Shown: positions 7,277-64,000 of the stretch, piece after piece
Layout of the letters: each line of letters begins with the position of its first letter
Position numbering within the stretch: the stretch's first letter is position 1
Source of the DNA: Cyanidioschyzon merolae
Taxonomy: Eukaryota
DNA length: 64,000 bases
NCBI GenBank assembly: GCA_000091205.1
Contig: AP006485.2
Direction: 5' to 3' (one strand)
The notes under the pieces: model-generated
What the model saw: only the letters and a program-made list of their open reading frames with translations
Told to the model about the DNA's origin: nothing
Database searches by the model: none
Position numbers and translations under genes: made by a program

Positions 7277-8487
7277 TAATTAAGGGATTCTCGGCCGTCT
7301 TTTCTGACATGCTTGTTCGACGCTCTGCCGTCGAAACGCAGGGAGGCTCGGGAGCCAAGACGATTTGCAACGAAATCGAGCTAGGGCTGGTAAAACAAGC
7401 GTTAGCACGATTTAATGCATACATACAAGCCTTTTGCATGTGCGTACCCTTCCGTGCAGCACGCTCGATTCACGCATGCTTCCAGTTTTCGACCGCTCTG
7501 TTTCAGGGCTGCTCGTGCGCGCACCAATACCTACTGCGTATGCGGCTCGGCGAAGTGCTCAACGCCATCTCTTGACGGGCTGTTCGCAAACTCGTGCCGA
7601 ACACTCACCGGACCTGTCATCTTCAGATGATCATCGATTTCGTTCGATAGACAAACTCGCACCTCGTACCCGCCATCGACGAGGCGTCATTCCGCAGCAG
7701 CTGCATATCCCGCACGGAATATGCTCACAGAAGCGCTCCCGTCTCTTCGGGTGCATCGAAGGGCGTCACGGAGTCGGACGTTGGTCGTCGCTGCGATGGA
7801 TTTCATAGGAGAGCGCGTACACGCTTTTCAGTGGGAAGGCGTCGGGCGGTCGAAGTCCTGCGACTTGTCCTCCAGCCAGGGGACTCGCTCCGGTGTATTT
7901 TGCATCGCGGATAGCATTGCATTCCAGAAACCCTCGATCGATTGGAACGTCGTTCGCCTGCGTGTCCAGCGCGCAGAGTACTCGCTGAGCGGACAGCGCA
8001 GAAGACGCCCCTAGTCGCAGGGTACGCCAACAGGCGCTGAAACGTGTGATGGCATGCGAGGGAAGCTTTCCTCGCCCGTCGAGTGCATATACCTATGCGA
8101 TGAAGCGTACCCTCCGGAGCCTCAGGGCGGTTCTCCGCGGAGGAGGTTTGGTCGACATATAGGACAACGCAACCAGGCACCAGTCGCATATCTGGAAGAA
8201 GGTGCGTCGACGCAGTGTACAACGAACGTGAGAGTGGAAAGCGATGCGTAGGACACAACCAGCGCCTGCACATGAAATGCGTCGCTCTTTGCTGCAATCG
8301 GTGAACTCGTGGCTTGAATGGTGCCAGCACCACCGTTGGACGGCTTCCAAGAGAGCTGGAGGAAAAACATGAACCATTGTATGTAAAGCCGAAGATAAGA
8401 GAGAGAGAGACAGAGTAGGGAAGCAGTCGCAGAGGAAGCCAGCAAAGGCTGGTGTCGTTGACAATTGGAAGAGACCCAAACTTTAGA
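7277..8487 (+). repeat. RepA copy 1 (1.2 kb dispersed direct repeat, unknown class)
   Basis: Near-identical to 16091..17298; identical ORF translations recur at 7309/16122, 7434/16178 and 7803/16616. It contains a (GA)n tract at about 8396. No recognisable protein domain. Confidence 0.85.
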
Positions 8488-20572: not shown

Positions 20573-21560
20573 TCAGCTCGGACCGATGAACACCTTGGAT
20601 TCCTTCTCTTCATCCGCCTTGAACGGTTCGAAATGTTTGTCGCTGCTCAACTGAGGCATACGTTTCATGAAATACATGTAGACTGATATACCATCGTGCT
20701 CACTTGTCCGTTTAGTCATCACTTCAGTTCCGCCGCGCGCACGAGAATCCTTGAACCAGTGCCGCCAATGTTCACAGCGAAGTTGTACGCATACTGCATA
20801 CCTGATCGCCGAGACCAGCAGTTGTTCAAAGAGCACGTGATGATATACAGTACGCAAGTGTCTACAGTGACATGTCGAAATGTACCATGGGAATTTGGAC
20901 AGGTGGCAGCCCTGCGCCCGGCACTCCTACAAACAGTTGCTCGACGAATTGCTTCAAGTCGAGGAAAGCTACGCGAAACATCCCAAAGCGAAAGGCTACG
21001 CGATCCCGAATGACGTTCAGCATCTCACGGTACGGAAGTTTCTCCCTGCCAGTGTGTTTCAGTGCCCAAACGACGATAACATTTTGAGATGGAATTTTTT
21101 GCCAGAACAGTTTCTCGTTCGCCGCCCTTCTTGTCCTCTGTTCCGGCGGATTTGAACCTTCTTTGTCTTGTGGATTCTTCTCCTTCTCTGCTACTTGGTG
21201 CAGTACCATGTCTACGTTCACTGGACTCTGCGTGTGCTTTCTTCCGCGGCAGTGAGAAGGCTCTGGTGGACGGTGGTGCTCAAATACGCATTCTCGATGT
21301 ATACATCTATTCTGCCTTACGTATCTTCTCGTCATATTCTCCGTGGTGAGCATGCCCACAGGCCGAGGCGAGCATTCCTTCACCTGTCCGGGCAAGAGCA
21401 CACAAGCTACAAAGCAGTTCAGGGCTGGTGAATGTAGAACAAGATTTGTGGAAAATGACACGCTGGAGAACGGTGTCATGGATGTGAACGGATCCACGAT
21501 CGATACGTGAGCGTAAAAATAGTTTTGACGACATAGAATACTCCTTCTACTGGACTGCAC
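20573..21560 (-). CDS. hypothetical gene (two adjacent minus-strand ORFs, possibly split by a short intron or frameshift near 20858-20862)
   Basis: Two ORFs sit end-to-end on the minus strand (20862..21560 and 20573..20857). No domain recognised. Confidence 0.2.
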
Positions 21561-23346
21561 AGCGGAGATTACAGTGGAATGAAAAGCAGGCCAACGTCAG
21601 AGTCAGCCCCGCAATACTTGACCGTCTTTGAGTGCTGGAAAGCGACTTTGCCGTTGGGCATGATAGAAGAATGTGCGACAGTGAAGCCACTCAGTAGCTC
21701 TACGATGGATGAGGCTTTGAACGATTCGGTCTTTTGGGCGATTTGTGGTCGACTAGAGGATCGAATCGCAGCCAGGGCTGATGTTTTCGGAGTTCTCGTG
21801 CGTGCCTCCTGTGCGATTCGTATTGTCGGCTCTTCGAATGCCCGTGTACAAGTCCACCATATCTCCCGAACAATGTGTCATCAAGTGAGACGAACACAAG
21901 TCCGTCCAGCTATAAGCGTTCGCGTTTCCGCATAAGACCAATCAAGTACTCTTGGACGCACCACTGTCCAGTACAGAACCGTTTTTACTGCGTTATCCAT
22001 CGGTGTCTGTTCAGTACTGTTCTTATTAACCGAACGCAAATATGGCATCCTGTGGCCACCTCGGTAGTCTTCCGTAGAGTACGCCTGCAATGAAAGGTAT
22101 TGACGATGAGAAAGTCTTACAACAAGAGTCCAATTAGTTCTGCTTTGTGCGTATGTAGCATAGGATAAGGTCTTCGAGAACTTGAGCTCATTCACCATCT
22201 AACGGTAGGATGACTGATTTGAGTACGGAAATCCGTTTTTCGCGAAGTATGACTGACGTCTTAAAGTGCTTCTACGATATTTCTTTAATCTTTGGGACGC
22301 ATCTTTTTTTACTGGTTACAAGCGAGAGAAAAAACAAAAGCATAAAGAGCGTGCTCGTTAAGATGTTCTAAAATGCGCTGCTATGACTATCAAGTCCTGC
22401 GGTTTCTCAGCGTCTGTGTGGGAAACACACAAATTGAAAAAAAAGTGCAGTGCTAGTTGTGCAGGAGCATGCCCGGACTTGAGTATGGGTAATGCTTTTG
22501 TCGAGAAAGACAGATACGCTATTTGCCTGTTGTACGCAAGCCACATCCGGTACTGTAGGCGACAAGAAATGTAGAAACACATTTGGAGTTCGTTTGAACT
22601 TCATTGCACAACTCCAACCGACTTCTTCCTAACAAGCTGAATGGTTTTATCACCGGCATGGTGGATCAGCCTCGACTGAGCGACTCGCAAACGGATTTGG
22701 TACAGATTCGTTCACTGGAGAAACTGTCTCTTCGCTAGACGCATTATGTTCACGTTGCTGCATTTATGTATGCAATTTCACGTCCATACCCATAGCAGGG
22801 TTACTTGAGGAAGAGTCTGTTACCCAGATGGCTGGCTGCCGCCCACATGAACCCAGGGTAAGGCTCTCGATGTTGTAGGGTCGATGCAGAACTCCCCGCA
22901 TTCCTCGAGAGACACGACTGTGGCCGACAAGGAACGAATCCGCAGAAGTTGTCGCAAGCGCATGCGTTTTGCTGTTGCGTTGCTGTCCAAAGTATGCGTC
23001 CCGCCCTGTCCGCAGGGCGCTTGGACGCAGAGGGCCGCGTGCAGCTGCCTTGCCCATTGAAAGGTCCTGTCGGAAGCAGAAAAACTACTAAAATTTAGCG
23101 CGCTTCAATCCTGTCAGCTTCAGAAAAAAAAGCGACCGCAACCTGCATCGCAAGAGGTCGCCGCCAGGAGAACCGGCGAGCCTCATATCCCCCGTACTTC
23201 GCAGTGGAAATTCGCTGTTCGAGGCTGCGACACCGCTGGCACGACTCAGATAACTTCTGCAAAGCCATTATCTCCTGTCGAGATCTATGCTATAGCAGGT
23301 GCTCGAAGCGCCTCCGAGCGCTCACTAGAGCACAATCTTTCGCTTT

Positions 23347-25526: not shown

Positions 25527-26167
25527 TGCTGTGGAAGGCTTTTCTCTGCCAAAATGCTCGGTTTGGATATCGAGTGTATATACTTGAATCCAGCAGTGCT
25601 TGCGCATCCATGAAGAAGCAGTCCATTGGCCCGAGATGCATCACGTGCAAGTGATCGCTCCTGGGTCCGCATGTGCTTGATGCGGGTGCCGAGGAACGAC
25701 AGCGCTCACATACTTGATGAGCAACTGCCATGCTACGGAGAGGCAGACCATTCAAGGTCAGCCCGGCGCGCTGGGACTAATGCATTGGCAGCGCTAAATT
25801 CTTTTATGATATCACGGCAAATTATCATCTTTATCGGCACGAATGGGGCTATAAACATATGGTGCTCCACCGCGAGGCATTCTCTGTTTAAAAGCGTGAA
25901 ATGCTTAGAGTATGCTAGAGCTTCAGCGAGCATCGCTGGAGCAGCAATCGCTTCTGGTGCAATCGTAGGTCGCATCGTGGCCCGCAGCATACGATCTTCC
26001 GGCGAGTCAGGATACCGTTTCCAGAGAGCGACCAAACATCGTTTTTCGCTCCGAAATCCTCACATCCAGGATCGATCCAGGAAAATAAGCACAACCTTCC
26101 GGCAAGGAGCTCGTCTCGACCATCCCATACAGCGAGTTCTATGCCCCTTTTTATTGGAGAGAATTGT

Positions 26168-28006
26168 TCAGAAGAGCACCTTTTCGAGAGGACTCAAATC
26201 AAGTACTGATGCAAAGCGTGGCGCTGCCCAGTCGTAGAGTATTCTAGCGATTCGCTTAACACCGCCCTGTGTCTCACTTTCAACATTTAGCGGCAGCAGT
26301 GGATCATGCAGCGACTGACGCAGCAGCAACCAACCCGCTCTCCCGTTGCCTTCATCGACTGCCACGCGCCATCCTTCATAATTCTCTTTTTCCAAACGCC
26401 AATTTGGCGGGGCCTCTGCGCTTGTCACGAAATCATGAAAGGCCTCAACGATCATCTTACCTGTCTCCTTGTAATTTTCGGTCAGCAAGTTCAAGCGGAA
26501 TTCCTTCTCTTCCAACGGCTCCGCGAGACCATCGAGCAAACTGTCGATGCCACGGTGATCCCCCTGACGCTGCAGGTTGATAAGTTCAGACACAATCTTG
26601 ACTGCGAGGTACGCACCATCATCTAACATGTAGTTTTCGCGCATTGCTCCGTGCCCGGAGGTTTCGATTGCCAAGGGACAATCAACTCCTGACTGGTTCA
26701 GCTCGATACCCTTATCGATAATGTTCTTGTAGCCTTTGCGGTAGCGGAAGTGGTGCCCACCACGCTTTCTGATAAACTCAGCGAGGCCGTTGCTCGTCAC
26801 CGAGTCGGTGAGAATCGTCGCGCCAGGGTGCTCACGGAGAACAATGGCCGAAAGCACCGCAATCAATCGATTGCGGTTCATGGGCTTGCCGTCGCGATTG
26901 ACGAATCCACACCGATCCCCGTCGGTATCGAAGACAATACCCAGATCTGCTCCGGATTTCAAAACAGCCTCTGACGCCATCTTCATCGCCTGTTGATCCT
27001 CCGGATTCGGCACGTGATTTGGAAACGTTCCGTCTGGTTCAAGAAACTGACTTCCCTGGATGTCAGCTCCGAGTGGAGCAAGAACATCGGTCGCAAAAAA
27101 TCCAGCTGATCCGTTGCCCGCGTCAACGATAATATGCGCTCCGTCTAGCGGCTTCAATGGGTTCTTCGCATTTCGAATCCCCTTTTCGATGCAGCTTCGC
27201 AAGTATGCTGCATAGGCCGCCATCAGGTCGGCTTTCTTCGCCAGAGCGCCGCTGTGTTGTCGATTTTCAATGGAATATGCGTCTCGACTCTGCGAGTGCT
27301 CAAACGCGTTCTCGAGCAACATGCGAACCTCCCTCTTATCCGTGCCGCCGCGTTCTGTAAAGAATTTTAGGCCATTCCGATCTGGAGGGAGATGCGAGGC
27401 TGTAAGCATCAGTGCACCATCAAACTTGAACTCCTCTAACACAGTGGACATAAACATTGCCGGTGTTGTGGCGAGACCGACGTCGTAGACGTCGCAGCCC
27501 TCGCTGGCGAGCGCGAGTATCACCGCGTCGCGGAGCGCAGGACCAGAGAGCCTCGGATCGCGTCCGACAGCTACGCGAAACACACCGCCTCGTACTGCGT
27601 CGTGCTGCTCGCGTCGGTCAGTGGAAGCTTTCAACCAACGGGCAAAGGCGCCGGCGATCTCCGCAGCTCTTTCCGGTGTGAGTGTAACCAGCGTCCGAGA
27701 GCCCTCCGTGGCCAACGCAACGCCTCGCACATCACTCCCGTTTTGAAGCTCCAGATAGATCGCTTTCTCTTCGGTTTCGGTGTCTAGTGCACTGCGCAAT
27801 CCGAGCGGGCACTGACACGGAGAAGAGTCAGTGGGTACGTAGCGTTCCCGTGAAGTTCGCAGAAACGCAGTTCGAGCGCGCTGGCGAGGTTGTAGCAGGG
27901 CGGGCGCCCGTCCCTCGTAGGGCCGCGAATGCTTCCGACGTCCACCCTGGAACGATCCTGAGGTACGAGCGTGCAGATCAGTGAGCGCAATATTTTGGCA
28001 GAACAT
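26168..28006 (-). CDS. phosphoglucomutase/phosphomannomutase-family enzyme (alpha-D-phosphohexomutase) with long S/R-rich N-terminal extension
   Basis: Active-site loop TASHLPPDRNGLKF (TASHNP-type) with LQNGSDVRGVA. Metal-binding region FDTDGDRCGFV. C-terminal domain GHGAMRENYMLDDGAYLAVKIV. The maximal ORF runs to 28195 (ATG), only 11 bp from the divergent gene at 28207. The internal ATG at 28006 leaves a roughly 200 bp promoter gap and is preferred. Confidence 0.65.
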   Translation of the reverse strand: MFCQNIALTDLHARTSGSFQGGRRKHSRPYEGRAPALLQPRQRARTAFLRTSRERYVPTDSSPCQCPLGLRSALDTETEEKAIYLELQNGSDVRGVALATEGSRTLVTLTPERAAEIAGAFARWLKASTDRREQHDAVRGGVFRVAVGRDPRLSGPALRDAVILALASEGCDVYDVGLATTPAMFMSTVLEEFKFDGALMLTASHLPPDRNGLKFFTERGGTDKREVRMLLENAFEHSQSRDAYSIENRQHSGALAKKADLMAAYAAYLRSCIEKGIRNAKNPLKPLDGAHIIVDAGNGSAGFFATDVLAPLGADIQGSQFLEPDGTFPNHVPNPEDQQAMKMASEAVLKSGADLGIVFDTDGDRCGFVNRDGKPMNRNRLIAVLSAIVLREHPGATILTDSVTSNGLAEFIRKRGGHHFRYRKGYKNIIDKGIELNQSGVDCPLAIETSGHGAMRENYMLDDGAYLAVKIVSELINLQRQGDHRGIDSLLDGLAEPLEEKEFRLNLLTENYKETGKMIVEAFHDFVTSAEAPPNWRLEKENYEGWRVAVDEGNGRAGWLLLRQSLHDPLLPLNVESETQGGVKRIARILYDWAAPRFASVLDLSPLEKVLF

Positions 28007-28206
28007 ATGCTGTGCTTGCTGGAAAACTCTGACGAGCAAACAAGCCGAGGAGCTCTCTCGGGGCGAACCCAACGCTTCGGAAAGCCGAGCTCCGCGTCGT
28101 GAATCAGAAGCGCAGCATGTCCACTGCACATGCCGTTGCTGAGCGTATTCTGGTAGATGCAAACGCCTCGTCGGTCTCGTGAAAGGTTTACACATGCTTC
28201 CTAGAA

Positions 28207-29316
28207 ATGCCCTTAAACTACTACTTCCGAGTAGAGATAGACGATAGTAGTGAGAGCAGCCAGGCTTCTCTTCAGGGTAGAGTCGAGCGTAAAGCTGCAG
28301 AGATCGAACAACGGCTGGAGAGCGTCTGGGGCTCCTGTTTCTGCGGAAGTTTCGAAGTAAGTTGTCACAAATACGCGCGTTCCGGCGAAATCTACCGGCA
28401 TCAGAGCGATATTAAGGACGTGCAACGCGAGTTGCCTGCTCTTGAGGCCTTTTACACTTTATCCGTACAACCGAGTGGTGTTTTCGCAGATCCCGTCATA
28501 GATGCCTTCGCCAGCGCTTCAGGCGCCTTGGACGGGGTTCGGCGGTCCTCGCTTGGAACAAAGCGGAACTATGCAGTTTCGCTAATCCCGACTTCTACCG
28601 AAACAGCAAAACGTGAGGGGCATAGCTTCGAACTTGCTGTTTTGGAGTGTGCGGAGAACTTCCCGGGATTCATGGAACAGTACACTGCTTCGCTTCCGCA
28701 GCGACCTCATGGCCCAGGAGACGCACAGAAAAATCTCTGGCAGATACGTATGACGAGGAGCGCCAGCATTTTCGAGTACCGCATAGAGGTAGAAAAGGAT
28801 GCTTTAGGCCCGCTCTTCTCAAGGGAGGGAAATCCGCCGTTCAGAGTTGGTCACTCGCGCCCTGAAGAAGCATGCCACCGTAGCACATGGGGCGCATCGT
28901 GTGATCATCTTCAGAGAAGCGACCTTTTCATTGCCATGATCCGCATGATATTAACTTACGAACGGCCGAGGGAGTCGGGTCGGGCATCCAGCCTTTTTAT
29001 TGAGCTGGAGATCCCGTCCCCGGAACAGGGAACCAGCTCCGGGGCTGGTCAGAAATGCGATGATATTTCGCCCGCTCCACGTCTTTGTGCCGATGGCTCT
29101 CTGGAACATCGATTCCTTAAGGCTTTCATAGATAGCATGTTACCCACACGCCTCGTCGAGTATCAGTCTACACTGCAGCTTTGTTCTCTTCGCAGAAAAT
29201 TCGCCCGCGTGCTGCTCGACTTCAAGATTGTCGATGGGAGTCATGAACTGCCCCCAGACGTGGGTCGTCCTACGCCTCTTCGCATCGCAATGTGCTGGCA
29301 GATGCTATTCAGCTAA
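28207..29316 (+). CDS. hypothetical protein (369 aa)
   Basis: ATG-initiated long ORF. No domain recognised. Confidence 0.3.
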   Translation: MPLNYYFRVEIDDSSESSQASLQGRVERKAAEIEQRLESVWGSCFCGSFEVSCHKYARSGEIYRHQSDIKDVQRELPALEAFYTLSVQPSGVFADPVIDAFASASGALDGVRRSSLGTKRNYAVSLIPTSTETAKREGHSFELAVLECAENFPGFMEQYTASLPQRPHGPGDAQKNLWQIRMTRSASIFEYRIEVEKDALGPLFSREGNPPFRVGHSRPEEACHRSTWGASCDHLQRSDLFIAMIRMILTYERPRESGRASSLFIELEIPSPEQGTSSGAGQKCDDISPAPRLCADGSLEHRFLKAFIDSMLPTRLVEYQSTLQLCSLRRKFARVLLDFKIVDGSHELPPDVGRPTPLRIAMCWQMLFS

Positions 29317-29389
29317 AAACTCGACGATGAACATTGACGATGGCATCGACGTGTCTCGATGCCTTTGCGGCAGCTAGTGGCACTCGAGA

Positions 29390-30850
29390 TTGGCGTACTG
29401 GTCGCTTCCCATATCGAACATACACTCACTATCAGTGAAACAAGAATCTTTTCACGACCATGGAGGGTAAATATATCTACCCACGCGCAGACGCCTCCCA
29501 GTGTTTTTTGACCGGCCTCCTGCTATAGGTTTGAGTTTCTCCTTGTACACTTCGAGCAGCAGAGGCTGGCCCACAAAGTTCGCTCTTGTCAACTCCGCGG
29601 GTCTCTTCTCCGGCACCAAACATTTCCTGATATTGATAGCAGCGTTGGAGTCCTGGTTCGCGAATTCCATGCGTTTATAGCCTCTGGTTGAACTCACCAA
29701 TGCAAGCTGTCCTCGAACTCGCGCCTTCAGAGCCATTTGGTGCTGCTTCAGCTCTCCGTACTTTTCTATCGCCGAAGCGCCCCGCTGGCTGCCCTCCAGC
29801 ACGACCGTCTGAAGTGTACACCCAAGCTCACCCCCTGGATTTTTTACTTTTGAACATGGAAGCGCATCTTCGAGGCCTAGGGTGGGGACCTTCCCGAAGC
29901 GAGAAGGTCTTGTGGAAGAAAGTCGACATGTGCCCCCAGGCTCACCGTGTACTGAATGTTTCAGCGATTCGCCCAGTGGAGTGATCATTACTTTTCAGAA
30001 TACAAAAGACTCCTTCTATGGGGATGAAACACAGAGTCTTCCGAGTAATGAAAAGCAGCTTTGCCCCGACAGAATTCGCATAAACTCGAACGCGTATGGG
30101 CTCGCGAAATGCCATGTCGTTCAATAGTAGAAAGTTGCCGGATGTAAGAGGAAAAGTCTTCAATGATTCGACAAATTGGGTGCTGTTGTATGAACCTTCT
30201 TTACGAGCGGAACTGAGGCCGCCGAAGGAATGCATTCCAGCTTGAACAGATGATGATACCCATGTTCTCTTCAAGCTCGATCGTGCATTCCACGGGCTGC
30301 CTGCTCTACGAATACCAATATACGCCTCGACTGTTTCATTCGAAGCAAGTCTCATCCACTAAAATAACAAACTGACGCTCCTCTGCTTTATTAGCCTCGC
30401 GAAGTACCAGGAACACCGTCGTTAAAATATCGGTGGAAGATGGCCCTGAATGGGATTGGACTTTTTTCGACTGTATCTAGTGATTGCATGACCGCAAGAA
30501 CATACTGTTCAGAAACAGAAACGCCCGTGGTGGCAACTACCTCGCTTTTGCTGCCTGCAATGTGATCAACGAGTCGCCTTCTAATACTCACCCGCAAGCG
30601 GTCTTTGAGAATCCCGGTTTTCGGCAATGAGCGCATCTATTCGTTTCTTTCCGTGTTCCTCAACCACTTGCGTACCGTCGTACGACTGACCAGAATGCAT
30701 AATGTAGTTCTCGTTGCTCTTTTAGTAAAGAATATATCCTACAGGCGATGCGTCAGCGATCTATACAGTAAATTGCATTGTGATGTCGATCTCCTGCTAT
30801 ATACCACAGCAGGGATGGAACAAATCTGAGTAGAGAGTCTGTAAGCGAGC
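29390..30850 (-). mobile_element. F1: pseudogenised TnpB/Fanzor-like element (IS200/IS605-superfamily RuvC nuclease + Zn ribbon), about 1.45 kb
   Basis: Three minus-strand frames (30391..30636, 29942..30355, 29452..29988) together encode about 395 aa. A RuvC-I-like YIGIRRAG has the Asp replaced by Arg. A RuvC-II-like FIPIEGVF is present. Cys pairs (TCRLSS...PCSKV) precede an intact RuvC-III KRMEFANQDSNAAINIRKC. The left-end region at 30700-30845 is homologous to F3 at 51400-51515. Confidence 0.55.
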
Positions 30851-43936: not shown

Positions 43937-44940
43937 ATCCTTTTTCTTCTGGCATCAGAGTAGCCGGCTGATGTATGCGAGTCACCTTCGACCGCAACAA
44001 TTCCGATTTATGCAATGCTGTAAATGGAGCATGCATGAGCGACTGCAGTGGGAGCACCTATCAGTCGAGCAAGCGTTCTTCTTTAGAGCTTTTATGCAGC
44101 ACACGGGGCCTCTTTTGCTGATGACTGCTTCTGTCGGAGATCTTTTGAGCTGGGCTGAACCTGCACAGCGGGAACGTTTAGAGGAATGTTGCGCAGACCA
44201 TTACCCGGATTTTGAGACTAGCGTAGCTGCTCCAAATAGATGCCATTGGTGAATATTGTGTTCCAACTCAATTTCGTTTCAATTCCGCTGCGGAGTATAA
44301 CAGGAAATCGAAATCACTATGCAATGTATGGATTAGAGCGCAGACGAATTTCCTAAAGGATGTATTCTTTATCGAGCAGTGCGATGAGGACTGCACTCCT
44401 TGTTCAGGTTATTCATGCCCCAGTACTCAGATGCCAGGGAACACTGAAAGAAACGAGTAGATGCGCTTCAGGCAGAAAACCGATTCTCTCGAAGACTGCT
44501 TGCAGGTCAATGGTAAGAAAAGACATGTTGATCACGTAATGGTAAGCAAAGCGCGACGACTGCAGACGCCACTGGCGTCTCTTTTTCTCAACAGCCTGTC
44601 CGCGTGGTCCTGCAAACACCGGGATGAAGTCCCAAAAAAGTCCCACTTCACTCACGGCCATCTTCCATCGAAATCGCAAAGACAGATTATCATGATATTC
44701 GCGATCCGCATGGAGCAGAGGAACGTCGATTTGTTTTCTCAGACGATGATAGTTCCTTCGGCAGAGGTAGTCCGAGCGTATACGTTGTTTCTCGGAGATG
44801 TGGCCTTTGTATGTAAGATCGAACTTGAAGTGAACTCCGACATCATCTGTTCTAGCTGCAGTGGATTCTTTTAGAGGCCCCAACTTCGCTCATAGAGAAG
44901 GCTTATACAACAGCGTCCACGTTGTCGAATTATTCAAAAC

Positions 44941-45159
44941 TTGTACTTGACTTCTGGGGACGTCCATCTTTTAGACTACCTGGCAAGTGGCCATTACCCT
45001 TGCGTTCGAGCTATTGCGGATTCTGTCCGTTTTGAACTGCCTTCTTTCTCTCTTTACACTTCGTTTTACAACCCTATCGAAGGAGTATTTTGTATCCAAA
45101 AACGCAATGATCGCTCCGTTGCGCGAACCGGCCAGGCGTTCAGAATGGTGGCACACTAG
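44941..45159 (+). mobile_element. F4: short fragment of the TnpB/Fanzor-like family (RuvC-II region)
   Basis: YNPIEGVFCIQKRNDRSVARTGQAF against F1 FIPIEGVFCILKSNDHSTGRIAETF. Confidence 0.4.
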
Positions 45160-45666
45160 AGCACATTTCGTCTTCTCCCGCAAGTTCTTCTTGCCCCGGG
45201 GAAGTCCTCACCTGAACATATGAAGAAGTTCGTTCATTTTCAAATGTAATCTGGATAAGGGAAAGTAAGGGTATGGAAGGTGAGGATCCTGGAAGGCTGA
45301 CGTCGACCGCTGCTAGAAAAAGACGAAAAACAGTTTTAAACCCGGAAGAACAAGACAATACGAAGAAGCAAATAGAGAGGTCAGACTTCAAAGGCTGCAC
45401 AAAAGGCGACATTACGACGAGACGGTGGTGGAAGCAAGTCTTATTGGACATATCAAGGGTCTCCACGAGCCAAATTTGCAAGAGGCCATCACGAACTGTT
45501 CTGAGTCGTGCTCCAGTAATATTTGCAACGCTTCTTCAGGTCTGATGCATTTGGTCAGGGAGATGTATCGCGACGTGACGCATGTGGAAGCGGTTGAGAT
45601 TCCGGACGAGTTCTTCGACAAGACCTTTATTCGTCACCTAATATTTGGCACAGGAGGAACCTCGAC

Positions 45667-47440
45667 GTGAGACAATCGCTTGCTCGCCTTCTACGAATAT
45701 CACGCCGAATGCCGCTCCGACGGTACTCGATACAGGGGTTACCGGGATATTTACAGCCATGGAGCGATGGATTACCTCACGAACCTCAAGAACCATTTGA
45801 CAATGAACCTCGAAAGCTTCATGATTCGCTCCACCTTTGCATTCTACCGGGACCTGTCTCGCAAAGGAATATGGGCCATCATCGGTGTCATCACGAACGA
45901 CCCCATCATGAGGATGAGATCGAATTCCTAGACAAGAAGACGCCATTCTGGAGAACTAATGAAGGTTCTGTAATCCGTGTGGCTCTCGACGACCACCGTG
46001 CGGTACTTGGACTGGCGAATCCAGTAGAAAAGGCATCAGATATGCTAAAAGATGAAAAAATATTACCCCCTCATCCTGCACTCTTTCGTGATCCTGAACT
46101 GAGAGCTCGAACGCAAGGCCGGAATGGAGCACGGCCTGAAAGCAGATAGAGACGAAGAAGCGGAAGGGTTTTCTGCACGAGAAGCTTTAACTTCGTCCCA
46201 TTTTTCACAATCAAGTCATACTTTGTGACAATCGACTTGTGAGTCCTTTATGGCACAATGGAATCTGTCCGAAGTTCGATGTAAGCAGGGAGGAATTTAT
46301 AGGCGAGAACAGGGAGCCTTATTGGAAGAATATCTTCGATTTCAAATGTCTCGAAACGAGCAGGAAAACTTATTTGCCGGGACAATCGAACACGATGGAG
46401 TATGCAAACGTGTTCACTGTAGTAGCTTGAAGGTGGATCGTCGTATTTTGTCTTCGTTGTCGCCCATGAAGAGCCATGTAGGAAACAAGGAGGCGGGCTC
46501 TACTACGCAGGAAGTGCAGAAGAACGACTTCATTGTAAGCGTGGACCCAGGGAACACGAATATCGTTACCATCGCGGCATCCAAGTGCCGAAAAGATGGC
46601 GTCGATGGCAACTTATGCCAGAAAGACATGCGTCTTTTAAAGTTCTCGAGAGCGAGAAAACACGGAGAATCGGGAATAATGAATGCAAGGAAGAAAAGTG
46701 AGACGTGGGACACAGGAATGAAAGAGCATCTGGAAGCGATCATCCAGGTGACGAGTCGTGGAGCGGACTTTGAAGTTTTGCGAGAATTCATAAAATTTCA
46801 GAATGCTCATGACGAGGAGCTGTGGAAAGAGGATACAAAGCCGCTATGGGCTCGTCAGCGACTGAATCTGCTCGGAGGGAGGCAGCGTGCATTCGCCAAC
46901 TTTTTTCAATGAGTTGAGCGCCCTCAAGGAGGACAAGAGTCAAAGCTTGGTGATAGCATACGGAGCAGGGCACTGGGTGACCCAAAAGGGGAGCATACCA
47001 GCTCCATCGAAAAGAGCGCACAAGGAGTGCGCACTCCCTTTCGAAGTGATACCGGTGTATAAATTCCGAACCACATACCTGCATCATGAGGTGGGATGCA
47101 CAATTCAGAGGGGCGAAATAGAGAAAAGCAAGCGGAGCGCTGATAGAGCAGGAAATAGCACAAGGGGCACGAGTTCGAGAACCTCTTCCATTAGTCAGGT
47201 CAAGCAGCGGCAGGAAACGAATGGAATTCGTGAATTGAGACTTGAAACTACCTATAATATCAGGAGATGTGCGGTGCTTGAAGGGAGATCTCCGGAGCTG
47301 ACGCGAACGAACTTTGTGGAGCAGCCTCCGGGGCTCAATTTGTATTAGGAGAAGCTGAAGCCGGCAGCACGGCTGCGGACGAAACAGGTAGGGAGGTGCC
47401 TGCAGCTAGATACTAATTTCGCTTCCATGGTTGCGAAACT
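45667..47440 (+). mobile_element. F2: pseudogenised TnpB/Fanzor-like element (plus strand), frameshifted
   Basis: N-terminal homology VLGLANPVEKAS (compare F1 VLAVMQSLDTVEKS). RuvC-I with the Asp retained (FIVSVDPGNTNIVTIA). A frameshift lies near 46900 (AFANFF | NELSALK...VIAYGAGHW). The Zn-ribbon region is KFRTTYLHHEVGCTIQRG. A degenerate RuvC-III is split over two frames (MEFVN / TYNIRRC). The C-terminal LTRTNFVEQP matches F1 and F3. Sequence 3' of the stop resembles the RepC right end (agaagctgaa..ccgg..cagctagatact). Confidence 0.5.
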
Positions 47441-47570: not shown

Positions 47571-50027
47571 ATGGAGTCGGACGACGAAGTGATAACTTGC
47601 GATGGACGGAGTGCGCTTCCTTCCTTAGCAGCGTACTCAGACGTTTCGGAGCATGTTGAACCGCTCATCAGATCGAAAGCTCTCCGTTTATACGAAGACC
47701 TGTTTTTGGCCTGCTCGGAGTGTCCGGATAGGTTTCCTTTCAACATCGCGATGGGCCTTCACGACTTGTATGTTTCGATTTTTCGGGCTCTAGCGGAAAC
47801 AGCCTCGGATCCAGGAGACTCTAGCGAACTCGGGAAATTACTTGCAGACCTGAGGTCTCAGCGTAATCTCTGGCTCTTATTGCACATCATGGACAACGCT
47901 GATTGTGAAGCTCGTAGAACAGTTTCTCAAAAACGTATGTCGCCCATGTGCACTCGGAGAGAGCGTCCTGCTGCTATCGACCAGCTCTCACGACAGATCT
48001 CGATTGATGGAAGCGGGTTCCTACCAAATCCGCTCGAAACGCTCCCCATGGTCACTTCCTGTCGTCGAGTGCTGGAGTGGCTGGAGCGTACGTCTGCACT
48101 GGACCTCGACTCCTCCATGGGGGCACACTATGCTGCACTGGCTGAGCTGGGAAGTCTGTGGGATCCGTCATATCGCTGGGGGCTCTCCCTGACCAACGGC
48201 ACTGCATTTGACATGGACGCTCCGTTTCGTGGTGATCTGCGGCTAGCTGATGAGGATTTAGAGGCCGATGAGCGAATCTGCCGGGCTTGCTTTGGCCTTC
48301 TCCGCTGCGGTCGACTAGAGCATGCTCTAGAGCTGCTGCGACGCACTGGTCAGCACTGGAGGGCGGCGCTTTTCCAGGGAGGCCATTCTGCAGCCCTGGA
48401 AGCGGCCGACGGATCAGATGGTTCGCACTGGATTCTTTGGCGAAAGATGGCTCGTGACATCTCGAAGCTGGATGTGCAGAACTTTTGGGAGCGTTCAATA
48501 CTCTGCCTGCTCTCGGGAGGAGCGGTGCCAGTATCTCTGCTTGACGCACCATCCATGGAGGATCGGTTATGGGTTCGACTTTGGAGCCTTTTAGATGAAT
48601 TCATCGGAAGTCGATTGGCCATCCTGTTGCGAGCCAGTACCAACCAAAGCACGTACTTGGAATCTCAGAAGCCGTCGAGCATTACATCATCCGAGGAGAC
48701 AATTTTTTCAACTGCTTCGGACATTCCAAACGAAAGTTTGTTTAAGGCTATCAAGGAAAGTGGGACTCGGGCAGACTCATCAAGGGCCGCGCAGCTTTTC
48801 GCCATTTTGCCACTAATAGTCGATCCGAGCACACGCTCGCAGGAAGAAATCCTTCGCACTTTACTGAAGAATGCCCGTGACACGTCAGAGTCACCGTCAG
48901 ATTTTCCGGATGATTCGAGCGATGAGCGGATTGTAAGCGACCTATCCCATTTTTCGCTCTGCATTGCCACTCATCTCCATTGGTATCTAACCGCTTCGAA
49001 ATCGGATGGTTGCTGCTCGGAGACGCACCTTTTAGGGGACTTACTTCTATGTGCTTTTATTCAACGGTTAAGAGAGTTTAGCGGGAAATGTGAATCATTT
49101 CTCGACTTACTGGCGCGTTATACTTTGGCCATTTCTGCAAAAGAGCTGCGAATTAGGGCAGTTATCCGTCTCTTATGGAACAGTCCCATCGCTGAAATCC
49201 GTGACATAATTTCTGCGGTTGATGAAGTTTCGCGTTCTAATGAAGAGGCCGAAATATTCGCAGATATTGTTCTTGAGTTTTGGAGCTTTGCTTGGACGCA
49301 TGTTCGGGAACAGCTGCGCTCTGGAGTGGGATCCGTCGATGAAAAGGACCTCCACAGGCTAGAGTATTGCCTCGATCTGCTCAAGGAACTTGGTGATAAC
49401 TTTGCTAGCGTCCACGCTTCCAGTTTAATGCAGGTTATAAGAGAATTTTACTCAAAAGATCAAATTTCAGCTACGAAATCGATGATACGGAGAGAGCGCG
49501 AGAGTGGCCATCCAAATATAAGGCTCCAAGAGGACGCAGAGTGGCAGTGCTGGTGCGCGCTTCTTGAAACAGAGGATCTCTACCTGCAGTGGACGGACTA
49601 TATGTTCGACCGAGGCCCCACTCGAAGACCCCGAAGACCGCAGAGTGACGACATCTCCGAGCTTGAATCGTACGAGATATCATTGCGTGAGTGGCTCAAG
49701 GGAGTTGATGATCTTGCTCTCCAAGCACTACACAGCTGCTTGAACTTGCTGCATGCAATTGCCTATCTTATACACGACCGGAATCTCGAATCCAGCTCGT
49801 CCGATCTAAGTTTTTGTGTCCGAATATGGTGCTCAAATCTTCTCTCCAACGTCTACGAAATCTCACAGAACCCAACGGCGTGTCGAGTCTTACCGCGTCG
49901 CGCAGACGTTTTTGTGGACTTGATGAGCTTCATTCCCCCCGAGACGCTTCGCTTATTGACGCAAAGATTAGGTCATGCTTGGACTGTCGTCAGGACGCGA
50001 AAGGAGCTGTCCATGTATGATCAATGA
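47571..50027 (+). CDS. Nucleoporin Nup107/Nup84-family protein
   Basis: 818 aa alpha-solenoid ORF. The segment ...CRACFGLLRCGRLEHALELLRRTGQHWRAALFQGG resembles the conserved Nup84/Nup107 GQxWRAA(T)L core. ATG at 47571. Confidence 0.45.
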   Translation: MESDDEVITCDGRSALPSLAAYSDVSEHVEPLIRSKALRLYEDLFLACSECPDRFPFNIAMGLHDLYVSIFRALAETASDPGDSSELGKLLADLRSQRNLWLLLHIMDNADCEARRTVSQKRMSPMCTRRERPAAIDQLSRQISIDGSGFLPNPLETLPMVTSCRRVLEWLERTSALDLDSSMGAHYAALAELGSLWDPSYRWGLSLTNGTAFDMDAPFRGDLRLADEDLEADERICRACFGLLRCGRLEHALELLRRTGQHWRAALFQGGHSAALEAADGSDGSHWILWRKMARDISKLDVQNFWERSILCLLSGGAVPVSLLDAPSMEDRLWVRLWSLLDEFIGSRLAILLRASTNQSTYLESQKPSSITSSEETIFSTASDIPNESLFKAIKESGTRADSSRAAQLFAILPLIVDPSTRSQEEILRTLLKNARDTSESPSDFPDDSSDERIVSDLSHFSLCIATHLHWYLTASKSDGCCSETHLLGDLLLCAFIQRLREFSGKCESFLDLLARYTLAISAKELRIRAVIRLLWNSPIAEIRDIISAVDEVSRSNEEAEIFADIVLEFWSFAWTHVREQLRSGVGSVDEKDLHRLEYCLDLLKELGDNFASVHASSLMQVIREFYSKDQISATKSMIRRERESGHPNIRLQEDAEWQCWCALLETEDLYLQWTDYMFDRGPTRRPRRPQSDDISELESYEISLREWLKGVDDLALQALHSCLNLLHAIAYLIHDRNLESSSSDLSFCVRIWCSNLLSNVYEISQNPTACRVLPRRADVFVDLMSFIPPETLRLLTQRLGHAWTVVRTRKELSMYDQ

Positions 50028-51520
50028 AACGAAAATGTTCTGACCATACAGTGCATAAATACATCCACTTCCAAACGCCTCCGAGCCTCGTTTGACGGCC
50101 CCCGGCTACCTGCTTGAGCTTTCCCTTGAGCAAATCGAGCGTGAGAGGCTGCCCTACAAAATTTGACCGCCCCAGCTCCTCGGGGCTCGTATTCTGCACC
50201 ACACGTCGTCTGATATGGATGGACGCAATGAAGTCTCGGCTCTCGAACTCCACACGTTTATTGCCTCTGGTGGAACTCGCAATTGCAAGGATAGGTAGAC
50301 CTCGTGCACTCTGTGCCACTGCGGCTTCGTCATGCTCTCATTGCGCGAACACATTTCCCCACCTATCTCCCCTTTTCTTACCCTTCTTCTTCGTCACTTG
50401 CTCTTCTTCGCTCGATTGCCGGCGAGAAGAGGATTTTTCGTCCATCCCCGACTACCGAAGATAACCGCATTCCGGGGCCCACGAGTTGCGTATCGATACC
50501 GTTCCCTTGGAATTTTCGTTTCTTCAACTGAAGACACTGCTCTATGCCGTTAGGTGAGGACCTTCCCGCACCGAGCAGCACATGCGGAAGAAAGACAAAA
50601 TGCGCCCCGATGTGTCACCGTGCGCTGAATGCTTCAGCGATTCGCCCGGTGGAACGGTCATTAGGTCTCACGATAGAAAACATTCCGCCGATGCAGTTGG
50701 AACACGGAGCGCACGGAGGAATGAAAAGCAGCTTTGCCCCGAGAGAATCAGCAAAAGCTCGACCGCAAGGGTAATAATGAAATGTCACGCTGTCCAAGAG
50801 AAGAATATCGCCAGACGCCAGGGGAAAAGTCTTTTGTGATTTGACGAAGTGGTTGGTGCTGCTGTATGAGCCTTCTCTACGAGCGAAAACCGAGGCATCC
50901 AAATGAATCCACTCTAGCGAGAAGAGATTGGTCCGCGCTCTCTTCGGGTTCGATCGTGGATACATGGGGCTCCCTGCCCCGCGAATACCCATGTACATTC
51001 CGACCGATTCTTCTGGAACAAGTCTCATTGGCTGGAAAAATGAACCGACGTCCCTAAGGATCATACCGATTGAGACGTTCTAGGAACACTGTAGATGCGA
51101 TTTTGGTGCAAGATGGCCGTGACTGACGTTGGAACTTTTCTGCGATTGTACCCATCGTTTTCAGGATCAGACGAATTTGCTGTTAAGAAACAGAGATGCC
51201 CCAGGTGGCTTCGATTGAGGGTTTTACTTTCAGCAAAAGATTATCAATGATCCGTTTTCTACCATTTACAGAAACCAGTCCTTGAGAATGATAGTTTTTG
51301 AGCGCAGCTCGTATACTTGTTTCGTTCAGTGGCCCTCGACCATCTGGTTTCTGTGGTGTGACTGACCTTAATGTGGAAACCAGTCTTTCTTGCATTATTA
51401 TGTAAAGAATCTATTCTACAGGCGATTAATCTAAGATCTATGAGGTACGTTCGATAGTGACTTCGATCTCCCGCTAAATACCGCAGTAATTTGGAAAAGA
51501 ATTGAGCTAGAAGAGTCGAA
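49990..51520 (-). mobile_element. F3: pseudogenised TnpB/Fanzor-like element (minus strand)
   Basis: N-terminal ORF 51183..51395 (…SIRAALKNY, compare F1 SIRRRLVDH). YMGIRGAGSP is a RuvC-I with the Asp lost. FADSLGAKLLFI is present. A degenerate RuvC-III KRVEFESRDFIASIHIRRR is followed by LGRSNFVGQPLTLDLLKGKLKQVAGGR. The left-end DNA at 51400-51515 is colinear with F1 30700-30845. Confidence 0.5.
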
Positions 51521-51545: not shown

Positions 51546-52415
51546 ATGACGCCTTTCAAAAACCTCTTGGCAGCTTTTCTTCCAGCGGTAATGGACTTTA
51601 GCGCTGCTTCAGGAGGAGACGACCACTTGAATCATTTATATGAGAAAGGCCTGCTCGTGAGGCCCGGAGATTTGCGTAGAGTTTTGAACGAAACTTCTCA
51701 GTGTACTCCCAACGGTCTCTACCAAGCTGATGGTACGGGCATAGTACGCTCGGCCCGAGTACAGCAGAGAAGGCTTATAGTGTTGTTGCCCGCAATCCTG
51801 CAGATTGAGACAGTAAAGGGAACCGGAAACGATGAGTCGGACAAGTTGCTGACTTTTGGTTGGATAACGGGAATGAAAACAGCCACACCGCACTTGAACT
51901 TTCTCCGCACAGATGGACGTCACGTATGTCTTAGAGGACGTTTTATCCGTCCAAGAAATACAATTTTGATCCTGAAAAATATGAGTGGATTCCAAAGAAA
52001 GCGTCTACTTCGAGTAGAAGATGTCATCGAGGAAGTTCTTGTTTTTGATGGGCAATTGATAGAGACGGATGATCAAGGTCATCCTTCAGATAGACCAGAG
52101 CACATAAGGGCAGTGCGTCGCATAGCGTGCGCTACACCGAAAATTGTGGTGACTGCAGATAATGCAGCACCTGGCCAATCCGGAGGTCCTAGCGTACCAG
52201 AAAATATGCAAGGAAGACATGTGGGGCAGGCGCTTGAGTGTACCTTAGTCTGCGAGGAAATGCGCGCCCGTGGTGAGCTATCACGAATCCCTGCCGGAGG
52301 TTTGACTGGACATCTCTCTGAGGAGGAGCAACTTCAACTGAGTGAACAGCATAAGAGGCTCTATACGGTGATAGAGGAAACGTTTGCTGCCCATGCTATG
52401 ATTGATATGAACTGA
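51546..52415 (+). CDS. hypothetical protein with a trypsin/HtrA-like GxSGGP motif (VVTADNAAPGQSGGPSV)
   Basis: ATG ORF of 289 aa. The motif resembles the Deg/HtrA TDAAINPGNSGGP loop, but the rest of the catalytic triad is not evident. Confidence 0.2.
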   Translation: MTPFKNLLAAFLPAVMDFSAASGGDDHLNHLYEKGLLVRPGDLRRVLNETSQCTPNGLYQADGTGIVRSARVQQRRLIVLLPAILQIETVKGTGNDESDKLLTFGWITGMKTATPHLNFLRTDGRHVCLRGRFIRPRNTILILKNMSGFQRKRLLRVEDVIEEVLVFDGQLIETDDQGHPSDRPEHIRAVRRIACATPKIVVTADNAAPGQSGGPSVPENMQGRHVGQALECTLVCEEMRARGELSRIPAGGLTGHLSEEEQLQLSEQHKRLYTVIEETFAAHAMIDMN

Positions 52416-59450: not shown

Positions 59451-60054
59451 TAGGTTGCGTGCTTTTCCTCACCAATCCAACCGCGCGAATTGCTGCACCC
59501 ACGAGATGACCTGGAACAGAGTGATCAACAACTTGAAGAGCGCCTGGTTTGAGCATGCTGCGCATGAGGAAATGAGAAGAGTGGAGAATTATACGTCTGC
59601 ACTGAATAATGAGGTTGCTTATGTTCTTTTACGAACCATTGCTCGAGTGCTCTGCGAATCATCTTGATTGCGGCAAGGTAAAGAATTCCAGCGGCAAATA
59701 GTTGATGGAGCCACTTCGGAAAGACGACAGAGAATTCTAGAGCTACTTATGAATCCGTGCATCCTTATGGCTGCACTTTGAATGTCACGGCTGTACATCT
59801 AACAGAGGTTTGGAAAGATATCGAGAGGAAAAAGCTCCATCTAGTTCAGTGCTCCATGTTGATCTGACATGGGCGTCGTCGTCGAATGAACTCGTATCAC
59901 CGCTGTGCGCGTATCGGGGCCCGTGACTACGCGAGCTCGGGTTCCGCGCCGGCGAAGTTCAGACCGCGAGCTCCGTATTGGTTAATCCATCTTCGAGAGC
60001 CGCGACAAAGAAAGCTTTTCCAGGATAACTTTTGAGGCCGAATCTCGTACAGAA

Positions 60055-62670: not shown

Positions 62671-64000
62671 CAGAGGACTCGTACACATTCTCATGCGTAT
62701 TCACATCACATTCGGAGGTGAAGCCCGCCCCGTAGTCTTTTCATCAAGTGCTCTCTTGGAACAAAGTTGTTTCAGTAATAATCATAAGAGATTGAAATTT
62801 TGCGGCACTCCACATCATACGGCTCTGGACGAAAGCCGAGTGTTCCGTGCATTTTGTTTGCATAATCGCAGCATTCCGATGAATCTGAAGCGTGTGCCGA
62901 AAGCTCGCAAAAATGGGTCTTACAGTGATATGGGTCACAATTCGCGAATTCATCGCGACCATGGAGCCGGCCATTTCAGTGGGCGCCACGAATGAATACT
63001 TTGCAGCGTTGGACAGAATACGGAAGCAGTCTCGCTTGGACACGATGAAGCCGACCGAAGACCCTCCTGCGGGCGCTAGCAATGATGGCTACATTTTTTG
63101 GGAGGGAATCGACATACATTCTCAGTAACTTTGTAGAATGGAACAAAAACATCGTTCACCAATGGCCCGGAAATCCGTTGCCGTAGTGCGAATAAGCGCC
63201 CTAGCCACGCTGGATTGCTGTACTCCACCATACTAGTGCCTTGTTCTAGGCAAGTATCCGTCTCCTCTTTTTTAGGCACTGTTTTTTTCATCGTGAGTCT
63301 TCAACGTTTCAGAATAATGTCTAAACTGAGTACCAAACGATTCTCTCGATTGTTTGCGCAAAACGAAGCCGCCATATGCTCTGGAACCACGTAACATCTC
63401 TGCATGTTGATCGACGCGTTCCATTCTCGGTACAGCAAGTGCTTTTACGTATTTCTGTTGGTAGAATCTCACCAAAGCATGCTGTTTACCTTAGATTGCC
63501 TCGCCGTCTGAGGTTGGGCGAGATACGAACCACTTTCTTGCACATCCATTTCTGTTTCAAAATATTCTTCTCTGAAAGTTTCAGCGTGTACCCACGCTCG
63601 CGAAGCGTGCTTGTCGTCTTGAAAGTCTTGACGGGAATCGCACAGAATCAATTCCTGCTTGGGCTGTGTGGTCTCATAGAACGAAGTGATGTGCAGGCAC
63701 TGCGCGCTGCAGCAAGTCTAGTGCCATAGCCTACAGTCAATCAACGAGATTGATAAGCTATTTCTTTTCTAACAACTTTGAAGAACTTTTCGATTGCAAG
63801 CATCATGTCGCCGTACAAACGAAACCGTTGGTGACTGCAGCCTGCTCTCGTGTACTCCGCCATAGGATCGTCTGCATAAGCTATTTTCACACGCACGTAC
63901 TCTCTGAATGAAGCGTGCAGCACATCGCAGTCTCCTCGAATCGGAGCATAGAGCGTGCAGATGGGTCCTGAAACCGGAATTCCCCTCGGTGGTACGCTTC

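Follow-up and report, generated by a model that had tools for sequence, protein, structure and literature searches.

A probable internally deleted relic of a transposase–Fanzor1 transposon in Cyanidioschyzon merolae

Remnants of two genes at the locus

The transposon relic described here lies at positions 29390–30850, on the minus strand, of a 64,000-nucleotide stretch of chromosome 3 of Cyanidioschyzon merolae 10D (hereafter, the window), and contains remnants of a transposase gene and of a Fanzor1 nuclease gene. From 30636 to 29452, 395 codons can be read across three minus-strand frames, in three successive open stretches:

30636-30391, minus strand, 81 amino acids (aa)
30355-29942, minus strand, 137 aa
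29988-29452, minus strand, 178 aa

An earlier note, made from these letters alone, read the span as one compact TnpB/Fanzor-like nuclease of about 395 aa. Every peptide that it quoted was found on the minus strand at the place given:

30319-30299, minus strand, IGIRRAG
30028-30005, minus strand, FIPIEGVF
29676-29620, minus strand, KRMEFANQDSNAAINIRKC

The length and the order of the motif look-alikes are thus as described; however, the codons combine two genes, and the peptides are divided between the transposase and the Fanzor1. The relic, hereafter copy A, is laid out as follows:

29432..30841, minus strand, copy A, the whole short (S1-type) relic: 5' leader, transposase pseudogene, spacer, Fanzor1 C-terminal remnant and 3' end
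30637..30830, minus strand, conserved non-coding 5' leader, with conserved blocks (e.g., ATAGCAGGAGATCGA.ATCAC.ATGCAAT) in 3- and 8-copy alignments
30451..30636, minus strand, predicted transposase N-terminal (helix-turn-helix) remnant, MRSLPKTG...ATTGVSVSEQ (tblastn with the copy consensus, 68% identity)
29942..30470, minus strand, DDE_3 catalytic-core pseudogene with frameshifts and stops (Pfam DDE_3 on the consensus, tblastn)
30356-30354, minus strand, codon of the first catalytic Asp (D1), in VDETCF
30121-30119, minus strand, position of the second catalytic Asp (D2), with Asn in place of Asp in LLLND
30016-30014, minus strand, catalytic Glu codon within FIPIEGVF
29831..29941, minus strand, spacer from between the transposase stop and the Fanzor start (local DNA alignments)
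29452..29830, minus strand, Fanzor1 C-terminal remnant, equivalent to CMe-1 residues ~611-734 (tblastn and blastp to CMe-1)
29652-29650, minus strand, RuvC-III Asp codon
29432..29456, minus strand, 3' terminal segment with a weak hairpin (GTGAAA...TTTCAC) overlapping the stop codon, at a position conserved among the short and long copies

The transposase half

As judged from sequence comparison, the N-terminal two thirds of the 395-codon span is a pseudogene of an IS630/Tc1-mariner transposase with a DDE_3 domain. The transposase was reconstructed as a majority consensus, first of three copies in the window and later of six copies, which purged private mutations. Pfam DDE_3 matched the three-copy consensus with an E-value of 1.7e-10 (41.4 bits) and the six-copy consensus with an E-value of 2.1e-14 (54 bits, profile positions 4-136 of 146), in both cases above the cutoff of 28.6 bits, and HTH_33 matched the six-copy consensus weakly, under its cutoff (E 0.0068). 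The consensus had 19 homologues, including intact transposases of 292-297 aa with DDE_3, HTH_33, and HTH_Tnp_IS630 domains; one intact relative, P0280, has precomputed assignments to PF01710 and PF13592. Intact IS630/Tc1-type transposases also matched the raw window directly at 30283-29891 (tblastn, E 1e-10 to 5e-9).

When the catalytic triad was aligned with the intact relatives P0275, P0280, and P0281, it was represented by D (VDET), D (LLLDN), and E (NPIEG), with D1 and D2 spaced 77 residues apart and D2 and E 35 residues apart in the intact proteins, corresponding to DD35E. In copy A, D1 is present in VDETCF, D2 is replaced by Asn in LLLND, and the Glu follows 35 residues on, so that the layout of the triad is kept in an inactivated form. 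It follows from this DDE_3 alignment that FIPIEGVF, previously taken for a RuvC-II-like motif, is the catalytic-Glu motif of the transposase. IGIRRAG, in which a RuvC-I with a dead catalytic Asp had been seen, corresponds to the YGxSxxG region of the transposase translated out of frame; in the ancestral frame, the sequence is ...VYWYS*SRQP..., and there is hence no dead RuvC-I at this place.

The Fanzor1 tail and its junction

The downstream part carries a genuine RuvC-III of the TnpB superfamily, and in this respect the proposal of a Fanzor-bearing transposon relic holds. The 178-aa open reading frame (ORF) at 29988-29452 matched the published C. merolae protein CMe-1 far beyond chance, with 54% identity of the tail to CMe-1 residues ~611-729 (tblastn E 1e-39, blastp E 2e-46). 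Its RuvC-III segment NQDSNAAINI, at 29658-29629, aligned with NRDFNAAINI of CMe-1, with the Asp kept (equivalent to D672) and the Arg changed to Gln, and the Fanzor1 relatives P0122 and P0134 matched 29760-29548 in tblastn. The family, which the earlier note could not place, is therefore that of the C. merolae Fanzor1 CMe-1 of Bao & Jurka 2013 (PMC3627910). Rather than being TnpB/Fanzor2-sized, as had been proposed, the Fanzor part comprises only the 3'-terminal ~125 codons of the gene for a Fanzor1 of 734 aa.

The coding homology to Fanzor starts at 29830 (ELGCTLQ, CMe-1 residue 612), and DNA alignment mapped the junction to 29831/29830. Upstream of the junction, 29933-29844 aligned with the spacer that separates the transposase stop from the Fanzor ATG in a longer copy at another place in the window (copy B, below), 29851-29832 with the spacer of the related locus L018, and 29873-29839 with the leader just 5' of the Fanzor ATG in CMe-1A, the published element that encodes CMe-1. 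The translation of the spacer yields a spurious 'LGLEDALPCS...' within the 178-aa ORF, which is a chance open frame spanning the spacer and the Fanzor tail. A gapped tblastn extension to CMe-1 residue 582 had made 'LGLEDALPCS' a candidate remnant of the Fanzor RuvC-II (DE-x-x-TS) region; this candidate was rejected because the DNA alignment shows it to be spacer.

The relic lacks REC and WED, as well as RuvC-I and the DE-x-x-TS glutamate, and in all more than 80% of the Fanzor gene is missing from it. The RuvC-I Asp (D431 in GADPG of CMe-1, VSVDPGNTNI in copy B) falls within the segment deleted from copy A, and the Fanzor Glu (E603 in VDEFRTS of CMe-1) lies upstream of the junction and so outside copy A. 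The latter belongs to the rearranged RuvC-II Glu motif of Fanzors, D-E-x-x-[TS]-[TS], as defined previously (PMC3627910, PMC10530073). Because the Fanzor homology begins only at ~611, the relic has neither D431 nor E603, and only RuvC-III is left of the three RuvC motifs. No CxxC pairs were found in the relic or in CMe-1 itself (HHELGC...EKC): the two Cys pairs reported earlier are isolated Cys residues (GGTCRL, LPCSKV, LGCTLQ), the first two in spacer-derived sequence.

Recurrence of the layout in other copies

Comparison of the window with itself revealed two further copies, B and C, at ~68% identity, in agreement with the suggestion that related derivatives lie near the locus:

44266..47438, plus strand, copy B, long (L) form (blastn within the window)
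about 44461-45141, plus strand, copy B transposase pseudogene
45273-47408, plus strand, copy B nearly full-length, frameshifted Fanzor1, equivalent to CMe-1 residues 4-728 (tblastn E 3e-178)
50020..51512, minus strand, copy C, a second short form (S2-type): transposase pseudogene, first Fanzor codons and Fanzor tail (CMe-1 650-723)

Copy B has ~1.9 kb between the halves that are only ~110 bp apart in copy A, and this extra DNA holds VSVDPGNTNIVT, ...QRLNLLGGRQRAFANFF, and IAYGAGHW...KGSIPAPSK...VYKFRTT, which resemble Fanzor1 from RuvC-I to RuvC-II. The transposase-spacer-tail-3' end order could be aligned end to end among copies A and C and the loci L052, L074, L018, L082-L089, and L090, and the short layout occurred at at least seven independent loci across strains, at least five of them from related strains. 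Two junctions were distinguished among the short copies. In the S1 junction (copy A, L052, and L090), the spacer is joined to Fanzor codon ~611, whereas in the S2 junction (copy C, L074, L018, and L082), the first Fanzor codons are kept and the sequence resumes near codon 640. Because S1 and S2 cannot be derived from each other, at least two losses of the Fanzor body, from a long form such as copy B, must have occurred. In a distance tree of the shared tail, CMe-1A formed a tight cluster, and the short and long copies fell outside it on long branches.

In other strains, some of the short copies have full-length open transposase ORFs of 234-255 aa (L082 4001-4705, P0270; L090 180-947, P0269). 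These ORFs are catalytically mutated, with VGETCFG and SVNKTCFG for VDETCFG, and FSLIDAV for NPIEGV.

Relationship of the CMe-1 family to Fanzor1 and TnpB

CMe-1A was described in C. merolae as a 3169-bp consensus with ~150 copies, no terminal inverted repeats (TIRs), and 'classification unknown', which encodes the 734-aa Fanzor1 CMe-1 (PMC3627910). The start of this published consensus, CGATGACAAAACGTTTACATTG, is the same as the 5' end mapped independently in this study on the abundant Fanzor-only units. The stitched translation of the 3' half of copy B had 171 homologues with 55-61% identity, in which the catalytic contexts are clean (GADPGNTNI, IPVDEFRTS, NRDFNAAIN). A few Joint Genome Institute (JGI) metagenomes contained hundreds of such Fanzor loci, in the form of sharply bounded units of ~3.3 kb.

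A profile of the CMe-1 RuvC core recovered 1260 relatives, mainly of 600-700 aa. When a profile of 47 relatives was compared with the chains of solved Fanzor1 structures, it matched 9CF0 (Parasitella, E 1.3e-19), 8GKH (Spizellomyces, 7.8e-11), and 9CER (Guillardia, 2.5e-5); in sequence searches of the PDB, neither the copy B Fanzor nor a shallow 20-member profile matched a Fanzor or TnpB. PF07282 (OrfB_Zn_ribbon) was detected in 5 of 10 distant relatives, in every case below threshold (E 0.002-0.34). A first AlphaFold run with a shallow alignment was discarded (predicted local distance difference test score, pLDDT, 34), and the AlphaFold2 model of P0004, an intact family member, built from a deeper alignment, reached a pLDDT of 83.6. 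In Foldseek searches with this model, the best matches were PpFz, SpuFz, and GtFz (E 9e-12 to 1.5e-8, template modeling score 0.47-0.60), followed by Cas12 proteins and then ISDra2 TnpB (E 1.8e-3). Thus, by profile and predicted fold, the CMe-1 family is joined to the solved Fanzor1 structures. The resemblance to the Fanzor1/TnpB fold was seen in the model of P0004, an intact relative, and not in a model of the relic.

Decay and absence of constraint

Among seven short copies, the ratio of nonsynonymous to synonymous substitution rates (dN/dS) was 0.89 in the tail and 0.78 in the transposase, and nucleotide identity was flat along the unit, with the tail no more conserved than the transposase part. 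The locus of copy A is 99.4% identical over 4.4 kb to its ortholog L091 from a metagenomic strain. Within the 178-aa ORF, 12 of 537 nucleotides differed from L091, 11 of them nonsynonymously (dN/dS 3.75), and constraint on the tail ORF was rejected on the basis of dN/dS. The flanking genes differed from L091 at only 2 of 1110 and 3 of 2028 nucleotides (0.15-0.18%), and the non-genic DNA in 25952-30360 of the window differed at 1.5-2.2% (1.5-1.9% for the intergenic DNA). The coding dS, at about 0.004-0.006, was far below this intergenic divergence, although the counts are small. The 178-aa ORF is missing from the NCBI annotation and has 29 near-identical metagenomic orthologs. Copy A evolves like intergenic sequence and is dead, ordinary junk DNA.

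Ends of the element and the 3' hairpin

The similarity among the copies begins around 30841-30830 and ends at ...GTTTCACTGA (29432). TA is present at both flanks of copy A (30832-30831 and 29431-29430), which is not decisive at ~68% copy identity, and the copies share a short TCAGT...ACTGA motif. The 3' hairpin of the short and long copies did not have significant folding z-scores (-0.1 in copy A), whereas the corresponding 3' position in CMe-1A is occupied by a strong hairpin. The segment at 29432..29456 may be left over from the right end of the transposon or from a guide-RNA scaffold.

The last ~60 nucleotides of the CMe-1A units (L034, L028, L075, etc.; L036 at ~7570-7630) contain a hairpin, GGCGTCGTTCGA-CTT-TCGAACGGCGTT, with a stem of 11-12 bp, which could be a right-end signal or the last stem of a guide-RNA scaffold, and a GC hairpin upstream of it shows apparently compensatory variants. 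Independent CMe-1A insertions are preceded by CGATG or CAATG (L002 4337-4342, L034 1215-1220, L029 ~189-194, and L059 ~4304-4309). This is either a target motif, like a target-adjacent motif (TAM), or the true first bases of CMe-1A; the CMe-1A consensus of Bao & Jurka includes CGATG (PMC3627910).

Other features of the window

Two ORFs in the window are exact matches to genes of C. merolae 10D:

28207-29316, ORF identical to CYME_CMC122C
51546-52415, ORF identical to CYME_CMC130C

Further relics of both protein families were also detected. A divergent relic of an IS630/Tc1-type DDE_3 transposase lies at 21506-22302 on the minus strand (P0281 residues 21-260 matched 22242-21515, E 2e-11), and weaker matches to relics of this type were found at 166-429 on the plus strand and 59655-59798 on the minus strand; all three are more divergent than the copy A transposase. 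Near the end of the window, a divergent Fanzor1 relic at 63379-63911 on the minus strand matched P0122 residues 497-673 (E 1e-14), and its upstream part would fall beyond the window. Because it is only 29% identical to CMe-1 508-621, it belongs to another Fanzor1 lineage. A fragment at 1456-1625 is similar to the TE-N2_CMe-like part of the CMe-1A 5' leader (66% identity over 170 bp).

Discussion

These results argue strongly that the locus is what remains of an old composite DNA transposon of C. merolae, in which a transposase was combined with a Fanzor1, and that this copy is dead and has undergone an internal deletion. The ancestral element, as pictured from copy B, would have used an IS630/Tc1-mariner-type DDE transposase (DDE_3, DD35E) for cut-and-paste transposition, with a CMe-1-family Fanzor1 of ~730 aa as cargo directly downstream. 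By analogy with characterized Fanzors, this cargo would have been an RNA-guided RuvC nuclease, thought to aid the retention of the transposon, and its guide RNA would have been transcribed from the 3' end of the element. An internal deletion would then have fused the spacer 5' of the Fanzor ATG with Fanzor codon ~611, which would have removed REC, WED, RuvC-I, and the catalytic Glu and spared the transposase gene, the RuvC-III segment, and the 3' end. Internal deletions of this kind are typical of abortive gap repair in cut-and-paste elements, and abortive gap repair is probably the mechanism here. S1 and the independently deleted S2 form (e.g., copy C) would subsequently have spread to several sites, where all copies decayed. 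The data show what the two gene remnants are, where they are joined, that the layout recurs, and that constraint is lacking; the order of events, the mechanism of the deletion, and the past activity of both proteins are inferred.

Several observations weigh against this explanation. No homologs were found with the stitched copy A transposase, and raw copy A translations gave zero Pfam matches. As neither the raw ORF pieces nor the stitched copy A translation had a Pfam match to TnpB or to anything else, the TnpB reading, like any other, is not decidable from copy A alone. The Pfam DDE_3 call depends on the consensus reconstruction, although the tblastn matches of intact transposases to the raw DNA support it directly. 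Tc1/IS630 elements are expected to have TIRs and TA duplications, whereas a search for TIRs found no long inverted repeats, and convincing TIRs or TA duplications were not demonstrated in these decayed copies. The distance tree of the tail is short and noisy, and the single long-form copy seen (copy B) is itself decayed. Finally, no transposase lies within 6 kb of most of the CMe-1A Fanzor units of related genomes, so the link to a transposase is limited to this older lineage.

The other explanations of the locus fare considerably worse. That the 395 codons once encoded a single, now frameshifted, TnpB/Fanzor2-sized nuclease, with a dead RuvC-I (IGIRRAG), RuvC-II (FIPIEGVF), a zinc ribbon, and an intact RuvC-III, is extremely improbable. 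The motif look-alikes do follow one another as in such a protein, the overall length suits it, and the RuvC-III is genuine; however, 30470-29942 is a DDE_3 core in which D, D(N), and E are spaced as in DD35E, IGIRRAG does not belong to the ancestral frame, the CxxC pairs are absent, and the Fanzor homology extends only from 29830. Moreover, the parent Fanzor has 734 aa, its real D431 and E603 lie in the 1.9 kb that copy B has kept and that is missing here, and the search found no intact homolog of ~400 aa spanning both parts in one frame. A chance juxtaposition, in which a CMe-1A Fanzor fragment landed beside an unrelated, older transposase relic, would be plausible a priori, given ~150 CMe-1A copies (PMC3627910) and the other relics of both families in the window. 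We nevertheless regard it as very improbable, because the same transposase-spacer-tail order can be aligned end to end at at least seven loci across strains, the S2 copies retain the Fanzor start codons directly after the transposase, and the transposase-Fanzor order is uninterrupted in copy B. In addition, the tails fall outside the tight CMe-1A cluster, and the tail flanks of different copies do not have independent CMe-1A-type ends or target sites.

It is also improbable, if a little less so, that the tail is functional, either as a mini-protein of RuvC-III and the C-terminal region or as a guide-RNA (fRNA) gene and right end that uses the CMe-1A Fanzor1 in trans. The last ~330-400 bp were kept by two independent deletions, and the ORF is open in copy A (178 aa), L090 (183 aa), and 28 of 29 orthologous sequences. 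There is also a hairpin at the 3' end, and in Fanzors the sequence for the guide RNA lies at the 3' end of the ORF and the right end of the element (PMC10530073). However, dN/dS values of ~0.9 among paralogs and 3.75 between orthologs disfavor the protein version, the nucleotide conservation of the tail does not exceed that of the transposase part, the z-scores of the hairpin are non-significant, and any transposable deletion derivative would be expected to retain both ends.

The coupling of a Fanzor1 to a transposase has a modest bearing on where CMe-1 came from. No other repeat of C. merolae is as abundant as the CMe-1 Fanzor1 lineage, which has been of 'unknown' transposon class since 2013 (PMC3627910). 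It is possible, although we consider it rather unlikely, that two statements hold together: that this lineage began as cargo of an IS630/Tc1-mariner (DD35E) element and that the short forms repeatedly kept the 3' end of Fanzor because of what it encodes. Under the first, copy B and the short copies may be fossils of the ancestral autonomous element, and the abundant CMe-1A may be a later chimera in which the transposase was swapped for the TE-N2 leader. Under the second, more speculatively, the 3' end would be both the guide-RNA scaffold and the right end, and would let the short forms exploit Fanzor1 in trans. What is new is modest: an older branch of the CMe-1 Fanzor is physically coupled to a Tc1/IS630-type transposase. 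The coupling offers a candidate origin for CMe-1, whose transposon was first described without TIRs and is still catalogued as of unknown class. This branch dropped the Fanzor body at least twice and kept the transposase and the 3' end, which provides another natural example in which the Fanzor cargo was dispensable for the spread of its carrier. The relic itself matters little, and its context adds a small piece to the ancestry of CMe-1. The case also illustrates a pitfall, in that a reading of motif order across frames can make a DDE transposase (D..., ...NPIEG...) resemble a RuvC nuclease.

Among the known systems, the closest is CMe-1A with its protein CMe-1 (Bao & Jurka 2013, Mob DNA 4:12; PMC3627910), which shares with the relic the genome, the protein family, and a homologous 3' portion. 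CMe-1A itself is a Fanzor-only unit of ~3.2 kb with a TE-N2_CMe-like 5' leader, ~80% identical to its own consensus and of class 'unknown', whereas the copies in the window represent an older lineage, ~70% identical to it in nucleotide sequence, whose 5' part is an IS630/Tc1-type transposase gene. The order of a transposase gene followed by a Fanzor1 cargo is also found in the Mariner/Tc1 elements PUl-1, PUl-2, and PGv-1 (PMC3627910), and Mariner/Tc1-Fanzor1c associations, the 3'-end fRNA, and the rearranged RuvC-II glutamate were described by Jiang et al. 2023 (PMC10530073). These Mariner/Tc1-Fanzor1 elements differ from the present one in their host and transposase lineage and in having clear TIRs and TA duplications. 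In the literature searched, there was no report of a Tc1/IS630-Fanzor association for C. merolae, and the class was left open there. 'Chimeric' sets of Fanzor-bearing elements, in which one part is common and the other differs, are a known theme (PMC3627910, PMC10530073). The parent CMe-1 family has its fold and RuvC layout in common with SpuFz (8GKH), PpFz (9CF0/9CF1), GtFz (9CER), and ISDra2 TnpB (8H1J), as judged from the profile matches and the predicted structure. It differs from them in its low sequence identity (12-18%) and in that the CMe-1 clade lacks the canonical CxxC zinc-finger pairs; compared with the solved Fanzor1 proteins, the relic has only the RuvC-III strand/helix and the C-terminal extension left. 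Copy A resembles the IS630/Tc1-mariner transposases (DDE_3, HTH_Tnp_IS630) in its DDE_3 match and the 35-residue D2-E gap, and is distinguished from them by its frameshifts and by the Asn in place of the second Asp.

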